From: an archaeon
GTDB taxonomy: Archaea; Iainarchaeota; Iainarchaeia; Iainarchaeales; JANQMZ01
Assembly (NCBI GenBank): GCA_028279805.1
Contig: JANQMZ010000007.1
Location: forward strand, 210,001 to 242,000
Length of the DNA stretch: 32,000 nt
Direction of reading: 5' to 3'
A program made the position numbers and the translations under genes. Numbering within the stretch: the stretch's first letter is position 1; each line of letters begins with the position of its first letter. The notes below the pieces were generated by a model. That model was not told the origin of the DNA and made no database searches. It saw nothing but the letters and a program-made list of their open reading frames with translations. This document shows, piece after piece, positions 390 through 12,529 of this stretch.

Positions 390-683
390 ACAATTTCACC
401 TGTTTTTTAAAATAGTCAAACAAGTTAATTAAGTTTTTTTGACTTTGTGTTTTAATCTCAGTCTTTTGCTGCTGCATTTTCTGCATTTCAAGGGATGTTT
501 TCCCTCTGAACCCCTGTTTCTGGCGTTGCATTTCATGCAAATCCAGATATTGTTGAACAATCTTGCCTCAGCTTCCGCAAATTTTGCCAATTAAAACACC
601 TTTAAATCAGAATTAATAACTGTTATTAGGTTACATTTAAAAAGCATTTTATTGCCAAATTTCTGTTAGGCTACTTTTTAGCA

Positions 684-698
684 TTTTAACATTAAAAT
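684..698 (+). promoter_or_regulatory. Candidate TATA box for the tRNA-Glu transcript
   Basis: The AT-rich element attttaacattaaaa lies about 25-30 nt upstream of the first leader hairpin (716). This is the typical archaeal TATA-to-TSS spacing. The call rests on position only. Confidence 0.3.
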
Positions 699-715
699 GC
701 GAACGAAGTGAGCCG

Positions 716-760
716 GTGCCATTGCAAATGGCACGCGGAGTAACCGTACGCAATCGGTTT
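716..760 (+). repeat. Structured tRNA 5' leader module, copy A (hairpin GTGCCATT-GCA-AATGGCAC, GCGGAGT, hairpin AACCG-TACGCAAT-CGGTT)
   Basis: The module ends 1 nt before tRNA-Glu +1. The same architecture, with an identical 17-nt core CCGTACGCAATCGG plus GCGGAGT, is found at 8173-8222 abutting tRNA-Ala. Confidence 0.7.
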
Positions 761-835
761 GCCCCTGTGGTGTAGTTCGGTCAAGCATCCTGGCCTTTCA
801 AGCCAGTGACTCGGGTTCAAATCCCGGCAGGGGCA
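761..835 (+). tRNA. tRNA-Glu (anticodon UUC)
   Basis: The cloverleaf was read by hand. The acceptor is GCCCCTG/CAGGGGC with discriminator A. The anticodon stem is CTGGC/GCCAG with loop CTTTCAA (TTC). The T arm is TCGGG-TTCAAAT-CCCGG. No CCA is encoded. A run of eight T (837-844) follows. Confidence 0.92.
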
Positions 836-836
836 C

Positions 837-6575: not shown

Positions 6576-8061
6576 ATTCCAGCTGATCCTGCTGGCGAAC
6601 ACTGCTATTGAGATTCGATTAAGACATGCAAGTCTGAGAAACAAAGTTATGGTTGTTTCTGGCGAACGGCTCAGTAACACGTGGGTAATCTGCCCTTGGA
6701 AAGAATTAAACCCGGGAAACTGGGCATAATGTTCTATAGGCAAAATATTCTGGAATGATTTTTTGCTAAAAGGTTGTAACACCATGCTGTTACAATGTCC
6801 AAGGATGAGCCTGCGGTGGACTAGGTTGTTGGCGGGGTAACTGCCCACCAAGCCTTTGATCCATACGGGCCTTGAAAGAGGTGGCCCGGAGAAGGGAACT
6901 GAGATACGGTCCCTAGCCCCACGGGGTGCAGCAGTCGCGAAACCTTTACAATGCACGAAAGTGTGATAAGGGAATCTCAAGTGCTACTTTTTGTGGCTTT
7001 TGCCAACTTTAAAAAGGTTGGCGAATAAGTGGAGGGCAAGATACGTGCCAGCCGCCGCGGTAACACGTACTCCGCAAGTGGTGTTCACTAATATTGGGCC
7101 TAAAACGCCTGTAGCCTGTTCAAAAAGTTTTTGGTGAAATCGGCAAGCTCAACTTGTCGAAGTGCCAAAAATACTGTTGAACTCGAGACCGGGAGGTGTG
7201 AGAGGAATTTTCGGAGTAGCGGTGAAATGTTATGATCCCGAAAGGACCACCAGTAGCGAAGGCGTCTCACAAGAACGGTTCTGACGGTGAGAGACGAAAG
7301 CTGGGGGAGCGACCCGGATTAGATACCCGGTTAGTCCCAGCCGTAAACGATGTGGATTAGGTGTTCTGACACTGTAAAGTGCTGGAGCGCCACAGCGAAG
7401 GCGTTAAATCCACTGCCTGGGGAGTAAGGTCGCAAGGCCGAAACTTAATGGAATTGGCGGGGGCGCACTACAAGGGGTGGATGCTGCGGTTTAATTGGAT
7501 TCAACGCCAGACAACTCACCAGGGTTGACAGCACAATGATGGACAGTCTGAAGGGCTTTCCTGAGGCGCTGAGAGGTGTTGCATGGCCATCGTCAGCTCG
7601 TACTATGAAGCGTCCTGTTAACTCAGGCAACGAGCGAGACCCACGCCACTAGTTGCTATTCACCTATTAGGTGGAGCACTCTAGTGGGACTGCTTGCGTA
7701 AGTGAGAGGAAGGAGTGGGCCACGGTAGGTCTGTATGGCCCGAATGCCCTGGGCTACACGCGGCATACAATGGTTAAGACAATGAGTTTCGAGTCCGAAA
7801 GGACAAGGTAATCCCCTAAACTTAACCTCAGTCCGGATTGAGGGTTGCAACTCACCCTCATGAAGCTGGAATCCCCAGTAATCGCGTGTCATTATCGCGC
7901 GGTGAATAAGTCCCTGCGCCTTGCACACACTGCCCATCAAGCCAGCTGAATAGGGTTTGGATGAGCTGTTTTCATCTGAGGATATCAATTCCATGTCCTG
8001 TAAGGCGGGCTAAGTTGTAACAAGGTGTCCGTAGGGGAACCTGCGGACGGATCACCTCCTT
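6576..8061 (+). rRNA. rrs: 16S (SSU) rRNA, archaeal
   Basis: The 5' end is attccagctgatcctgctgg. The 515 region gtgccagccgccgcggtaa is at about 7044-7062. attagatacccggttagtcc is present, and the 3' end is ggatcacctcct (anti-SD). Length is about 1.49 kb with no insertion. The minus-strand ORFs here are spurious. Confidence 0.95.
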
Positions 8062-8103: not shown

Positions 8104-8172
8104 AAAAATGGCTGAATATGAGTATTTAAAACATTTAAATGTTTTCAATCAAAAAGTTCTATAGTGTTTTAT

Positions 8173-8222
8173 GTGCTATCTTTAGATAGCACCTGAAGCG
8201 GAGTGTCCGTACGCAATCGGAC
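8173..8222 (+). repeat. Structured tRNA 5' leader module, copy B (hairpin GTGCTATC-TTTA-GATAGCAC, ctgaa, GCGGAGT, hairpin GTCCG-TACGCAAT-CGGAC)
   Basis: The module ends exactly at tRNA-Ala +1 (8223). It shares GCGGAGTnnCCGTACGCAATCGG with copy A at 735-757. Confidence 0.7.
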
Positions 8223-8295
8223 GGGCTCATAGCTCAGCTGGTAGAGCGCCGCCTTTGCAAGGCGGAGGCCACGGGTTCGATCCCCGTTGAGTCCA
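8223..8295 (+). tRNA. tRNA-Ala (anticodon UGC) in the 16S-23S spacer
   Basis: The acceptor is GGGCTCA/TGAGTCC with the G3:U70 identity pair. The anticodon stem is CCGCC/GGCGG with loop TTTGCAA (TGC). The T arm is ACGGG-TTCGATC-CCCGT. No CCA is encoded. Confidence 0.93.
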
Positions 8296-8318
8296 TGCCC
8301 GATGTTTCGGGCGGGAAC

Positions 8319-8360
8319 GTGTCATTTGCAATGACACTGGCACTTTGCGGAGTGCAAATT
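8319..8360 (+). repeat. Partial third copy of the leader module (hairpin GTGTCATT-TGCA-ATGACAC, 9-nt spacer, GCGGAGT, GCAAATT)
   Basis: It has the same GTG..CAT..ATG..CAC hairpin type and the GCGGAGT heptamer as copies A and B, but lacks the CCG-TACGCAAT-CGG hairpin. It lies 24 nt downstream of tRNA-Ala. Confidence 0.55.
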
Positions 8361-8579: not shown

Positions 8580-11561
8580 CGAGTACAAGAGTTAATACTA
8601 AGCCAGCTAGCGAATAACTTGGCTCAACCACCGATGACAGGCGTGGCAAGCTGCGATAAGCCATGGCGAGACGCATGCAGTCTTTGAACCATGGATTCCT
8701 TAATTATTCCGAAAGGAAGGGTAATGCGGTGAATTGAAGCATCTTAGTAACCGCAAGAAAAGAAATCGAATGAGATACCGTTATTATCAGCGAGAGAAAA
8801 CGGTTCAGGTCAAACCGAATCCTTCATTGCAAAATGTTGGAAATGTGGTGTGAGCAGTTTACATCCAAATTTATTAGAAGAAGTTTTCTGGAACGTAATG
8901 CCATAGAGGGTGAAAGCCCCGTATTTAAAATTTTGGAGGATGATTTTCTGTTTCAAGAGTAGCGTGCATTGGATATTGTGCGCAAACATGGGCATCTTTA
9001 ATGCCTAAACCTAAAAATGTGTTGAGTCCGATAGTGAACTAGTACTGTGAAGGAAAGTTGAAAAGCATCCCTGACGGGAGTTTAAAAGCGTTTGAAACTA
9101 GTTGGTGATTGGCTGATGCAGCGTGAAAGAAACGATTCTCTTAAAAGAAACTTTTTGAAAAATTGGAATCGATAAGAGATGATCAGCGTTGCATCGTTCG
9201 TCTTGAAACACGAGCGAGGGAGTTTGTTGTTGTGGCGAGATTAATTTCATTATGAAAGAAATCATAGCGAAAGCGAATAGTTCGCAGCTTCGGTGAGGAA
9301 CAAAGTATGTTCTGCTTTTAGTCACTGCAACAAGACCTGAAAACAGGTGATCTATTCTTGGGCAAGATGAAGCCCTCCTTCCGGGGGGTGGAGGTCTGAA
9401 CAGTAGCTAGTCTATCTGCACTGATGATCTGAGAATAGGCGTAATATGCGACTCGAACCTGTCGATAGCAGGCTCCTCTTAAAGTAGCTCTCAGGCTAGC
9501 CTGGTTGGAGAAGCCATATGGTGTAGAGATACTGATTAAAAAGTACTGGGGCGAGAGCCCTAGCTTTTTTGTCAAACTCCAAAGTCATATGGTTTGTAGA
9601 AAACCGGAGTAGGAGCATTCGGGTAAGCCGAATGTTCTTGAGGGGAACAACCCAGTCGTAGGTTAAGGCCCATAAACACCAGTTAAGTGTTAAACCGAAG
9701 GGTGTTCTTATGCTAAAACAGTAGGGAGGTTGGCTTAGAAGCAGCCATCCTTTAAAGAATGCGTAACAGCTCACCTACCTAGGATGAGAGCCCCAAAAAT
9801 AATCCGGGCTAAACTGGTTGCCGATACCTACGGGCACTCATTTTTTGAGTGGTTCAATAAAGAGGTATTCTGATGGAGTTAAAGCAAGGCAGTAATGTCT
9901 TGTGAATCTTTCAGAAAAATGGATCCTCGTGCTAGTATTAACTATTGAGCGGTGAGAATCCGCTCCCCCGAAAGGACAAGGGTTCCTTAGCGCTTATTAT
10001 AAGCTAAGGGTCAGTCGGCCCTAAGCATGTTCATAACTTGAAACATGCAAAAGGGAAACAGGTTCATATTCCTGTACTATTCAAATACGCTTTCGGCAAC
10101 GAATGGCTATTTTTTGACGCTTTGAGCTAGGAAAGTTTTCTTGTCTGAAAACTTAACAAGCATAGTTCTTTGGAGAACTGTCATTGTGAGAAAAAGAATA
10201 AAGCTTGGAATAGCCGCAAGGTTTTTCCGATGCTCATAGCCCTTGAAAAGAAAAATAGCAAGAATTTTGAATAACCGTACCGAGAACCGAGAAAGGTGTC
10301 CTGGCTTAGGAAGCCAAGGGGTATCAGGATAACAACGTTGAGGGAATTCGGCAAATTAGCCCTGTATCTTTGGTATAAGGGGTGCCTGTTTTGAAGAAAG
10401 CAGGTTTCAATAGCAAAGGGAGTCCGACTGTTTACTAAAAACACAGGTCCCTGCAAGTCTGTAAAGATGTGTATAGGGGCTGACTTCTGCTCACTGCCAG
10501 TACGTGAAACTCCGGTTCAATGGAATTAAGCGCTGGTAAAGAGCGGGCCTAACTCTGAGGCTCTTATGGTAGCGTAATACCTTGCCGGTTTATTGCCGGC
10601 TTGCACCAACGAAGTAACGAGATTCCCACTGTCCCCAACATTGGCCTGATGAACTCGCTGCCCGGTGAACATGCCGGGGACTTCCAACGGGAAGAGAAGA
10701 CCCCACGGAGGTTTACTACAGTCTGATGCTGTGATATAATTTTTGGAGTACAGTGTAGATGGGAGTAATCGAAATAATTTCGCTAGGAATTATGGATACA
10801 TCAATGGAACACCATCCTTCAAAAATTGTACCGCTTACTCGTAAGAGGACACCATCAGGTGGGTAGTTGGACTGGGGCGGTACGCCCCTGAAACAGTATC
10901 AGGGGCGCCCAAAGGTCTGCTCAGACGAGTCGGGAATTCGTCGTAGAGTGCAAGAGCAAAAGCAGGCTTGACCTTGTTTCACAAAGCAAGAAACGAGGAT
11001 TCGAAAGAACGGTCTAGCGAACGACAGTGTGCCTTTTAAAGGGGCCCTGTTCTGACAGTGAACTTACCCTGGGGGTAATTGTGTTGTCGTGGGTAAGAGT
11101 ACACATCGACCCCACGGTTTGCTGCTTCGCCGTCGTCTCATGGCATCCTGGGCGTGCATAAGCGCCCAAGGGTGGAGGTGTTAACTCATTAAAGCCGTAC
11201 GTTAGTTGGGTTGAGAACGGTGCGAGCCAGTTTTGATCCTATCTGTTGGAAGTGCAAGGTGACTGAGGGGAAGCTCCAATCAGTACGAGAGGAACGTTGG
11301 GTCGCAGCCACTGGTTTACCAGTTGTTTGACAAAGCATTGCTGGGTAGCTACGCTGTAACTGATAAGGGCTGAAAGCATCTAAGCTCGAAGCAGTCCCTG
11401 AAAAGAGTCACCTATGACTGAATATGTTTTTTCTGCGGAAAAAATATCTAAGTCCGAGAGTTCCCGTAAAAGACGGGTTTGATAGGCTGGAAGTGTAAGC
11501 TAAAAGCTTCGGCGATTAGTTAAGCTCACCAGTACTAAACACTTGAGTTGACTCTTGTACA
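8580..11561 (+). rRNA. rrl: 23S (LSU) rRNA, archaeal
   Basis: The 5' sequence gagtacaagagt (8580-8591) pairs with the 3' sequence actcttgtac (11551-11560) to form helix 1. Conserved stretches include ggcaagctgcgataagcc, the sarcin-ricin region agtacgagaggaac and ggataacaggctga-like regions. Length is about 2.98 kb. The flanking TTGGTCTA (8551-8558) and TAGACCAA (11589-11596) can extend a processing stem. The exact ends are uncertain by about 10 nt. Confidence 0.93.
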
Positions 11562-11627
11562 AAGAACAGTGAGTTTGTGGCAAATTGGTAGACCAAGCCT
11601 ACAACCAATGCATGTTTTTTATTTTTT

Positions 11628-12170
11628 TTGAATAATGTTGATTGCATGAGCAGATTAAGAGAATTAAAAAAAGCGAAAAATGAAACCAAAAACAATTCAA
11701 TGATTTGGCTGGTTGCCGGAATTGTTGTATTGCTTGGAATTGGAAGTGCTTTGTTTTTATTTAGTGGATCATCCAATTCCGGAAATTCTTCAGAATTGAA
11801 TACTGCCGGTTTAAGTTTTCCTTTGGTTAATGTTCACTGGCATGCCACTCCTATTGTAAATGTTTGCGGTGAAAACAAGCCAATTCCTGTTGCGCCTGTT
11901 ACTGACCATTTGTTGCACACTCATGAGGACAGATTAATTCATATTGAAGGCACTGTTAACAGCCCTGAACAAATTACTTTAGGCCGGTTTTTCGGTTTGG
12001 TTGGAGTTAAATTTTCTTCAACTCAGTTGTTGGATAAAACAAATGGCGATGTTTGTGAGAACACTGGACAGCCTGGAAAAGTTTCAATGACTGTTAATGG
12101 TGTTCCAAGTGAAGAGTTTGAAAACCATGTTGTAAGGCATGGTGAAACAATTATAGTAAGTTTTGATTAA
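11628..12170 (+). CDS. Membrane-anchored extracytoplasmic protein, conserved family of unknown function (HxH ... HTH(D/E) motifs)
   Basis: 180-aa ORF with one N-terminal TM (MIWLVAGIVVLLGIGSALFLF). The motifs are VHWHATPIVNVCGENKPIPV, LLHTHEDRLIHIEG, ITLGRFF and VNG...GETIIVSF. I recall this pattern from uncharacterised secreted proteins of bacteria and archaea. The true start may be the ATG at 11646. Confidence 0.7.
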   Translation: MNNVDCMSRLRELKKAKNETKNNSMIWLVAGIVVLLGIGSALFLFSGSSNSGNSSELNTAGLSFPLVNVHWHATPIVNVCGENKPIPVAPVTDHLLHTHEDRLIHIEGTVNSPEQITLGRFFGLVGVKFSSTQLLDKTNGDVCENTGQPGKVSMTVNGVPSEEFENHVVRHGETIIVSFD

Positions 12171-12208
12171 TCAATAAGCTTTTTATACTCTCAATGAGCA
12201 ATTATAAT

Positions 12209-12529
12209 GTAAGGTAGTGAAAGGGCAGTTAAGGAATTCTCTGAATTCTTAGGAAAGTCCACCCACTCGTTAAAAATCTCGCAAGAGAAATTCTCGAAAG
12301 GGAGTCCATTGGAACAGAAACGAACTCAGGCAAACTTTGACAATGATAAAAAATTGAGTTGTTTGTTTTTGGGATGAAACGGCTGATGGTTTGAGTGCAA
12401 GTCATTGAGACGCTTAGACGAATGCTGCCAAGATGTGCTTTGTCAAAAAAGCAGGAATCAACAACAGAATGATTCTCGGTTTTTGAAACCGTATCCTAAC
12501 AGAAGGTGGCTTACTCTTCACTGCCTTAC
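12209..12529 (+). ncRNA. rnpB: RNase P RNA (archaeal type A-like)
   Basis: The terminal helix P1 is GTAAGGTAGTGAA (12209-12221) paired with TTCACTGCCTTAC (12517-12529). A P3-like hairpin is aaggaattc-tctg-gaattctt. The CR-I element is aggaaagtcca. A gggatgaaacggc (CR-IV-like) element is present. The CR-V element is aacagaaggtggcttac. A run of seven T follows at 12531-12537. No ORF occupies the region. Confidence 0.85.

Follow-up and report, generated by a model that had tools for sequence, protein, structure and literature searches.

The 32,000-nucleotide stretch of archaeal DNA analysed here (the window) holds a ribosomal RNA locus, in which Rfam models place 16S rRNA at 6576-8060, a spacer tRNA-Ala, 23S rRNA at 8585-11558 and RNase P RNA at 12213-12525. 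Two tRNA genes are called in it by ARAGORN, Glu(UUC) and Ala(UGC), and each is immediately preceded by a copy of the same short structured module, the subject of this report (Table 1). The source genome (876 kb, 34% GC, 94% complete) belongs to the Iainarchaeota, a lineage of the DPANN archaea, whose genomes are tiny and streamlined. To our knowledge, few repeats or structured non-coding RNAs have been described in DPANN archaea.

Table 1. Features around the two module copies of the window, and the seven copies in the source genome (core positions on contig C9)
Feature	Position	Strand	Remarks
TATA-like A/T-rich boxes ATTTTAAC, ATTAAAAT	window 683..698	+	upstream of copy 1; putative promoter and start region of a module + tRNA-Glu transcript
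Accessory hairpin A	window 699..713	+	GCGAAC-GAA-GTGAGC, tandem G.A/A.G mismatch
Hairpin B of copy 1	window 716..734	+	GTGCCATTGCAAATGGCAC; 8 bp, loop GCA
Pseudoknot core of copy 1	window 735..759	+	directly after hairpin B (0-nt linker); S1 735-737/749-751, L1 GAGT 738-741, S2 742-746/755-759, L2 TA 747-748, L3 AAT 752-754
tRNA-Glu(UUC)	window 761..836	+	1 spacer base after core of copy 1
TATA-like boxes TATTTAAA, CATTTAAAT	window 8124..8141	+	within 16S-23S spacer; possible internal promoter
Hairpin B of copy 2	window 8173..8192	+	GTGCTATCTTTAGATAGCAC; 8 bp, loop TTTA
Linker of copy 2	window 8193..8197	+	CTGAA
Pseudoknot core of copy 2	window 8198..8222	+	S1 8198-8200/8212-8214, S2 8205-8209/8218-8222
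tRNA-Ala(UGC)	window 8223..8295	+	16S-23S rRNA spacer; 0 nt after core of copy 2
GC-rich hairpin string after tRNA-Ala	window 8297..8355	+	GCCCGA-TGTT-TCGGGC, then GGGAAC, then two hairpins
Copy before tRNA-Glu	C9 210735		
Copy before tRNA-Ala	C9 218198		
Copy between two tRNA-Ser genes	C9 251053		antisense
Copy	C9 252485		
Copy before tRNA-Thr(UGU)	C9 400300		
Copy before tRNA-Asp	C9 430344		
Copy at the end of a 485-aa open reading frame	C9 780785	-	touches the stop codon

A hairpin and a pseudoknot before tRNA genes

A sequence-only reading of the window had proposed that both tRNAs share one upstream module, which is borne out by the coordinates of hairpin and core and by a 23-mer, GCGGAGTNNCCGTACGCAATCGG, with two exact matches in the window against 0.00 in shuffled sequence. 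In both copies the heptamer GCGGAGT is followed by NNCCG-TACGCAAT-CGGNN, ending 1 nt (Glu) and 0 nt (Ala) before tRNA +1, and the variable positions of this second stem compensate (AA/TT versus GT/AC) just as that reading described. The heptamer is present as reported but is not single-stranded, its first three nucleotides pairing with nucleotides 3-5 of the following hairpin loop. The module as a whole is an 8-bp hairpin (hairpin B) followed by a 25-nt core that folds as a compact H-type pseudoknot, with stems (S) and loops (L) in the order S1 (3 bp), L1 GANN, S2 (5 bp), L2 UA, S1', L3 AAU and S2'. Hairpin and core are joined by a 0-nt linker in five of the seven copies of the source genome and by 4-9 A/T-rich nt in most relatives.

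This fold was examined with a loose pattern, GANNNNCCSTANNNAATSGG, that imposes no pairing on the variable positions. All eight pairs are present in 72 of its 85 matches; over the 48 distinct cores, 98.7% of cells are paired, with both-sided changes in six of the eight pairs, and none of 500 shuffles reaches the observed values. Both pseudoknot helices are paired at about 99%, with both-sided changes in two of the three S1 pairs and four of the five S2 pairs, and sliding the partners by 1-3 columns lowers pairing to 17-40%. S1 occurs as GCG/CGC, UCG/CGA, CCG/CGG, GCC/GGC and GGG/CCC: the first base of the former heptamer covaries with the fifth base of the hairpin loop (GCG with TACGCAAT, TCG with TACGAAAT, CCG with TACGGAAT), and the second and third positions covary as well (GCC/TAGGCAAT, GGG/TACCCAAT). 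The positions that are invariant among the 48 cores are partly imposed by the search pattern; 40 extra matches, found by a covariance model only, relax them (L2 UG or GA, L3 AAC, L1 AANN) and bring new compensated S2 variants (CGGCC/GGCCG, CGACC/GGTCG and CAACC/GGTTG). Position 3 of L1 is G only where the neighbouring S2 pair is G-C, a coupling that hints at a base triple.

The hairpin precedes the core in nearly all copies, and its stem sequence varies freely while its pairing is kept: 66 distinct hairpins comprise 521 Watson-Crick pairs, 18 G.U and 7 A.C. Since G.U occurs among the internal pairs and A.C does not, the selected strand is the one that reads hairpin, then pseudoknot. The earlier argument for a conserved folded structure rather than a DNA site is supported once more copies are aligned, with covariation far stronger than is visible in the window and including the pseudoknot. 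No Rfam 15 covariance model matches the module, either at the gathering score or at E<=5, and we found no literature description of a pseudoknot or RNA motif in DPANN, Diapherotrites or Iainarchaeota, or of pre-tRNA leader pseudoknots.

Two other structures were considered and set aside. An alternative minimum-free-energy pairing joins accessory hairpin A with the core of copy 1, but the other copies do not conserve it. The GA-rich hairpin loops contain tandem G.A pairs, as in a K-turn (an L7Ae site), but lack the 3-nt bulge that defines one. Hairpin A itself is also found at the Asp, 252k and 780k copies of the source genome, and relatives contain its GAACGAAGTGA motif within hairpin loops. 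Hairpin B of copy 2 is a member of a subfamily, GTGCTATC...GATAGCAC, present at three other sites in the genome. Members of the form GTGCTATC-TTTA(A/G)-ATAGCA(T/C), at C9 250975-250994 (+) and at window 8173-8192, carry a TTTAAA-type box in the loop, and read on the minus strand the former lies at about -39 of tRNA-Ser(GGA), the right distance for a TATA box.

The TATA-like boxes reported upstream of both modules are indeed present, at about 683-698 and 8124-8141, and would set the transcription starts. Within the source genome, a TATA-like hexamer lies at -24 to -42 in 18 of 35 tRNA genes, and the 30 nt upstream of a typical tRNA gene are 10-37% GC. In contrast, the four module-bearing tRNA genes have no such hexamer at -24 to -42, and their upstream 30 nt are 57-60% GC (57% for tRNA-Glu). 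For Glu, Ala and Asp the nearest TTTAAA/TTTATA box is at -89 to -125 (tRNA-Ala has TTTAAA at -98 and -89), and the TATTTAAA box of tRNA-Thr(UGU) is farther away than the 130 nt scanned, immediately upstream of the complete hairpin string. The box positions and the GC-rich upstream regions together would place the module within the transcript, between promoter and tRNA +1; this promoter geometry makes it very likely that, at the window loci, module and tRNA share a transcript from which RNase P removes the module.

Other hairpin modules give tRNA-Ser(UGA), Arg(GCG) and Arg(CCU) long GC-rich folded upstream regions as well, so that seven of the 35 tRNA genes of the source genome have long folded leaders for RNase P to handle. 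At tRNA-Arg(CCU) (C9 776230-776340, minus strand), a folded leader of ~65 nt lies between a TATTTAAA box at -92 and +1, and a long-range stem, GTGTTCCGG/CCGGAACAC, encloses a second hairpin in it.

Copies, contexts and flanking duplications

All seven copies of the source genome lie on contig C9, and the open reading frame touched by the copy at 780785 is presumably glyS, judging by its sequence. Within the order, the loose pattern matches in 28 of 196 genomes, with 85 matches against 13 for a reversed control, and a phylum-level sample adds one borderline match outside the order. The covariance model finds copies in 25 of 125 Iainarchaeota genomes (>=85% complete), at 1-22 per genome, and none in the other 100. 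This distribution is patchy at the family level, with copies in 10 of 16 genomes of one family and 4 of 8 of another, and in 0/14, 0/12, 0/11 and 0/14 of others. Copies within one genome are more alike than orthologous copies across genomes. In a pattern scan of one genome per prokaryote species, the fully paired titled matches among those listed are Iainarchaeum or 'uncultured archaeon' metagenome-assembled genomes; one more fully paired match among those listed closely resembles a Lysobacterales match and looks like chance, and the listed bacterial matches, many of them in GC-rich bacteria, are chance matches without the pairing. Thus no convincing copy outside Iainarchaeota is found among the matches listed, in keeping with the earlier suggestion of a lineage-specific element. 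A scan of viral contigs returned only unpaired chance matches and no copy of the element.

Genomic contexts were examined for about 115 copies; many 'open reading frames' downstream of copies in GC-richer relatives look spurious and were not counted. About 14 of these are sense copies that end -4 to +3 nt from the 5' end of a tRNA, and another stops 1 nt short of a 16S 5' end. About 15 copies, including that at 251053, are antisense to a tRNA, and their pseudoknot comes within 0-2 nt of its 3' end, at least seven, including that at 780785, adjoin the stop codon of a convergent protein gene (-2 to +3 nt), and at least two tRNA genes hold the element within an intron, in antisense. Overall, ~29% of copies touch a tRNA gene whereas tRNA genes are a few per cent of all genes, so the tie to stable-RNA genes is real, and it exists in both orientations. 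For example, the rRNA-spacer tRNA-Ala has a sense copy at its 5' end in the source genome and an antisense copy at its 3' end in genome G179; tRNA-Ala(UGC) of G037, a gene whose rRNA context is not established, also has an antisense copy at its 3' end.

In genome G011 the element stands directly before the Shine-Dalgarno (SD) sequence and ATG of uL2, uL16, uL29, eL19 and uL18, the upstream gene at these ribosomal protein (r-protein) copies being the preceding gene of the operon (uL23, uS3, eL32, eL19). It has the same placement, before SD and ATG, at the genes for an editing protein of the AlaX type, a zinc-finger protein of the HVO_2753 type and an epimerase. The RNase P RNAs of G049 (L267, 250-573) and G050 (L268, 231-613) harbour it within P3, as a 70-77-nt insertion of hairpin plus pseudoknot that ends directly before the conserved GAGGAAAGUCC; P3 in the window's own RNase P RNA is a plain hairpin.

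Roughly one copy in five has a stretch of 11-23 nt that directly follows the pseudoknot and recurs shortly upstream of the hairpin. Of 77 copies, 13 have exact flanking direct repeats of >=9 nt, against 3 of 77 controls, and 15 have flanking 16-mer repeats with <=2 mismatches, against 2 of 77; the 40 covariance-model matches add six more cases of flanking repeats. The repeats adjoin the last pseudoknot base at an offset of 0 and are made of local sequence, namely 23 nt from the very 3' end of an intact tRNA-Gly gene (L008), 11 nt from a second tRNA (L018), 20, 16 and 13 nt of antisense tRNA 3' ends (L009, L083 and L069, the 20 nt being from antisense tRNA-Ala), and the last 17-18 nt of a C/D-box-like small RNA (sRNA) in genomes of two different families (L007 and L010). 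Between genomes the inserts (66-156 nt) differ to the left in both length and sequence, and the right end is always the pseudoknot. The unit in G011 consists of TATAATTATTACC, hairpin, ACATAAA and pseudoknot (~66-75 nt) and is flanked by 13-19-nt duplications that include the SD and ATG of the target; in the G011 epimerase gene a 78-nt insertion is in frame.

Two of these loci deserve a separate remark. The C/D-box-like sRNAs (TGATGA ... CTGA) at L007 (G016) and L010 (G011) lie ~60-120 nt upstream of the element and are not called by Rfam; the duplicate pair is identical within a genome and differs by one base between G016 and G011. At L020 (G011, contig C4, ~1440-1530), a copy with a 7-nt duplication (ATGAAAA) lies in frame just past the initiation codon of the gene for an NAD-dependent epimerase; were the upstream SD-preceded ATG used, the protein would be 26 residues longer.

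Presence and absence at one orthologous site can be compared between two filled-site and two empty-site congeneric genomes. The tRNA-Thr(UGU) ortholog carries the module in G029 and, in diverged form, in G191, and G195 and G189 have a plain TATA box ~26 nt upstream; G029 retains the TATA box, with ~95 nt between box and tRNA. These data revise the functional proposals made from the window. The motif is tied to tRNA and other translation genes, but not to tRNAs only, as the antisense, mRNA and RNase P RNA sites demonstrate. The module would be a leader in the primary transcript at the window loci, as promoter geometry suggests, but it is not a dedicated pre-tRNA leader, with only ~14 of ~115 copies in sense before tRNAs. 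Moreover, a recognition element for RNase P is at odds with the copies in antisense, at protein genes, in RNase P RNA and in introns, with the duplication-like flanks, and with orthologous tRNAs that lack the module.

Interpretations of the element

Taken together, the common fold, the family of copies and its distribution, the flanking duplications and the presence/absence polymorphism suggest, with a probability of about 0.6, that the module is a copy of a short, non-coding, pseudoknot-ended interspersed insertion element confined to Iainarchaeota. It would be a structured repeat resembling miniature inverted-repeat transposable elements (MITEs) or repetitive extragenic palindromes (REPs), of unusual anatomy and with a newly defined fold. 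Such an element would measure ~50-160 nt and consist of a variable 5' part, a covarying GC-rich hairpin and the 25-nt H-type pseudoknot as its 3' end. The last pseudoknot base would be the exact right-hand junction with a target duplicated over 11-23 bp; the duplications would record insertion, and the pseudoknot may be recognised by the copying or inserting machinery. Copies would gather at the edges and permissive sites of highly expressed stable-RNA and translation-component genes. The two window copies, old and without surviving duplication, probably landed between TATA box and tRNA +1, where they would be transcribed as structured leaders of 45-65 nt, with RNase P cutting right after the pseudoknot. 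In a non-autonomous element of this kind, the hairpin-pseudoknot end would be the part under selection.

Several observations weigh against this interpretation. Within the families scanned (Y1_Tnp, TnpB, RVT_1 and Cas1), no transposase, reverse transcriptase or Cas1 is found in the source genome or in most copy-rich genomes. Y1_Tnp (PF01797) is absent from the source genome (G000), G011, G005, G029 and G193, with one fragment in G024; Y1_Tnp and TnpB are both absent from the source genome and the complete genome G029, on which grounds an origin from the insertion sequences IS200/IS605 or from REPs is unsupported; RVT_1 is absent from the source genome and present in only one of five genomes tested; and Cas1 is absent from the source genome, G011, G024 and G176. 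Each genome has one Xer-like tyrosine recombinase. Nor was a longer autonomous element or a viral copy found, the genes upstream of copies being ordinary host genes; a MATCAP-like gene between two hairpin strings of the source genome was considered as an element-related gene and proved unrelated. Unlike ordinary MITEs, the element lacks terminal inverted repeats and has duplications of varying length. Some repeats (L039, L041 and L069) form part of tandem duplications of the whole unit rather than clean insertions, and none of the seven source-genome copies has a detectable duplication. In addition, the G011 copies before protein genes are all in sense and copies are strongly enriched beside translation-apparatus genes, which could reflect a host function, and the conservation of the loops across families would fit a host RNA-binding partner as well as a mobilising enzyme.

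A host role is indeed the substance of an alternative that we consider unlikely but not negligible, in which the element is a cis-acting RNA 'punctuation' mark: a lineage-specific protein or nuclease would cut at, or protect, the 3' edge of the pseudoknot, so that the transcript ends of tRNAs, rRNA and r-protein mRNAs are defined there, and its spread would be secondary. This would account for an edge that lies 0-3 nt from a gene boundary in most copies, for the enrichment at tRNAs, 16S, uL2, uL16, uL29, eL19, uL18 and AlaX, for the sense orientation in the G011 r-protein operon, for the conserved single-stranded loops and for the retention of the module within P3 of RNase P RNA in two species. 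However, ~22 antisense copies are directed at the 3' end of a tRNA or protein gene, a place that offers nothing to process, orthologous tRNAs do without the module, 100 of the 125 genomes of the order have no copy, and the target duplications indicate insertion. It is quite improbable that the copies form a family of small stable RNAs, with 3' ends generated by RNase P cutting an adjoining tRNA or cloverleaf-like antisense tRNA, the tRNA then being a processing signal for the module and not the reverse. The identical 0-3-nt spacing to sense tRNA 5' ends and antisense tRNA 3' ends fits this idea, as do, for Thr and Asp, TATA boxes that precede the first hairpin by ~26 nt, and the G.U strand signal that is also seen in two antisense-context copies, but more than half of the copies have no tRNA-like neighbour, and no terminator follows those copies. 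Furthermore, hairpin sequences differ among copies, so that no common trans target is apparent, and copies within RNase P RNA and tRNA introns cannot be free sRNAs.

Two further alternatives are very unlikely in our judgement. A compact H-type pseudoknot with invariant loop bases, near in size to preQ1-I-type aptamers and directly before SD sequences in G011, might be a ligand-sensing, riboswitch-like element that co-regulates translation-apparatus genes. Yet the gene set is incoherent (it includes an ABC transporter, an epimerase and antisense contexts), no expression platform is seen, the SD being outside the fold and tRNAs untranslated, the distribution is patchy with polymorphic sites, and no Rfam family matches. 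The same low odds apply to a DNA-level element, such as a promoter-proximal operator or protein-binding palindrome of stable-RNA genes. Although A/T-rich boxes adjoin the hairpins, the loop TTTAAA of one hairpin subfamily is suitably placed as the TATA box of tRNA-Ser(GGA) on the other strand, and both orientations occur, the stems vary freely with pairing kept, G.U is tolerated while A.C is not, and the three-base pseudoknot covaries with the loop, which a site in duplex DNA cannot explain. Thus an insertion element remains the interpretation that we prefer. How it spreads is a separate matter. The element might be copied through an RNA intermediate: RNase P would release leaders that end precisely at the 3' edge of the pseudoknot, and these would return to DNA at stable-RNA genes with high transcription. 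Such a route would account at once for a 3' junction that is exact, for a 5' extent and duplication lengths that vary, and for the association with tRNA genes. Nevertheless, we hold this route to be rather improbable, and treat the resemblance to retroposition as a minority possibility because most carriers have no reverse transcriptase. If true, it would make the element the first retroposon described in archaea that resembles short interspersed nuclear elements (SINEs). At similarly low odds, the pseudoknot may instead be a protein-binding module that RNase P RNA has co-opted in P3.

The module represents a well-supported new RNA fold, with ~115 copies and covariation in every variable pair, including those of the pseudoknot. 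It behaves as a mobile insertion with one exact pseudoknotted end, long variable duplications and a preference for tRNA, rRNA and RNase P RNA genes. It also alters how these genomes are to be read, since RNase P RNA, an essential ribozyme, carries the element in P3 in two species and copies between the genes of essential r-protein operons are tolerated. Identifying the enzyme or RNA pathway behind its mobility could reveal a new transposition mechanism, and the covariance model is ready for use in annotating such elements.

Neighbouring modules and known systems

The hairpin string after tRNA-Ala (Table 1) exemplifies another, related module of the source genome, found at tRNA 3' ends and made of a 6-bp hairpin with loop TGTT, then GRGAAC, a hairpin often with a bulged A (NNNN-GCC-NTN-GGC-A-NNNN) and a third hairpin. 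Besides trailing the tRNAs for Ala, Ile(UAU), Arg(UCU), Trp and Ser(GGA), this module begins the leaders of tRNA-Thr(UGU) and tRNA-Ser(UGA) and is reversed against the 5' end of tRNA-Arg(GCG); its occurrences beyond the window include those at C9 834546, 244661(-), 26946, 250857(-), 400220 and 251269(-). Pairing of its TGTT loop with the downstream GAAC, as a second pseudoknot in the trailer, was considered and dropped as sterically unlikely. A second type of pseudoknot likewise follows the GTGCCAnTGnAAnTGGCAC hairpin and consists of GAC, 4-6 nt, a 6-bp stem, a loop R-GTC-AG and the stem again, in which the upstream GAC can pair with the loop GTC; it is seen at C9 317053-317097, 600931-600972, 832846-832889(-) and 392781-392830(-), and none of the four adjoins a tRNA 5' end. 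In L026 (G011, contig C12, 1380-1800), three diverged tandem units that start with GCCTCAGACAGC and end with CGGCGAGTGCG may represent an unannotated small-RNA family; they are separated by hairpin modules, one of which is the pseudoknot element. Within the window, no 5S rRNA is detected by Rfam, and the RNase P RNA gene lies ~650 nt 3' of 23S on the same strand, with unassigned sequence (11559-12212) between them. A genome-wide census of 11-mer repeats was too noisy for use, and GC skew was too weak to relate the orientation of the element to replication.

Among known systems, MITEs are similar in being short, non-coding, multi-copy and structured, in occurring in either orientation with target-site duplications, and in being polymorphic between related genomes, and the element is likewise present or absent at orthologous sites. 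It differs from them in having a single precise end, the right one, together with a conserved pseudoknot and long duplications of 11-23 bp that vary where a fixed length would be typical, and no parent insertion sequence or transposase was found for it among the families scanned; its G011 ends, TATAATTATTACC and ...AATYGGGT, are not complementary, and the sole inverted repeat is the internal hairpin. REPs, their mosaic combinations (bacterial interspersed mosaic elements) and their REP-associated tyrosine transposases (RAYTs, of the Y1 HUH type) offer another parallel, as GC-rich hairpin repeats that lie at gene ends in both orientations, combine as mosaics and are homogenised within a genome. 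However, REPs are simple palindromes with a conserved 5' tetranucleotide and a cognate RAYT, whereas the core of the element is a pseudoknot and Y1_Tnp is missing from the source genome and four of five copy-rich genomes. We know of no SINE-type retroposon in prokaryotes, but the element shares with this class a precise and structured 3' end, variable 5' extent, variable-length duplications and association with tRNA genes; it lacks a poly(A) or A-rich tail and a tRNA-derived promoter, and RVT_1 occurs in one of five genomes. Casposons generate duplications of ~14-16 bp, and their insertion sites are the 3' ends of genes for tRNAs or proteins; unlike the element, they are kilobases long, have terminal inverted repeats and encode Cas1, which the source genome, G011, G024 and G176 lack.

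Two comparisons concern RNA rather than mobility. The preQ1-I riboswitch (RF00522) is also a compact pseudoknot of ~25-34 nt with conserved loop bases and an A-rich loop crossing a short stem, but in the element the stem order is reversed (short stem first), the sequences are unrelated, neither a coherent gene association nor an expression platform is seen, and its copies do not keep a consistent sense position before related genes. Like ordinary archaeal pre-tRNA leaders, the window module lies downstream of a TATA box and ahead of tRNA +1, and would likewise have to be cut off by RNase P. In contrast, most other tRNAs of the source genome have their TATA box at -24 to -42 and leaders of a few nucleotides, whereas the module leaders are 45-110 nt long, GC-rich and folded right up to -1.

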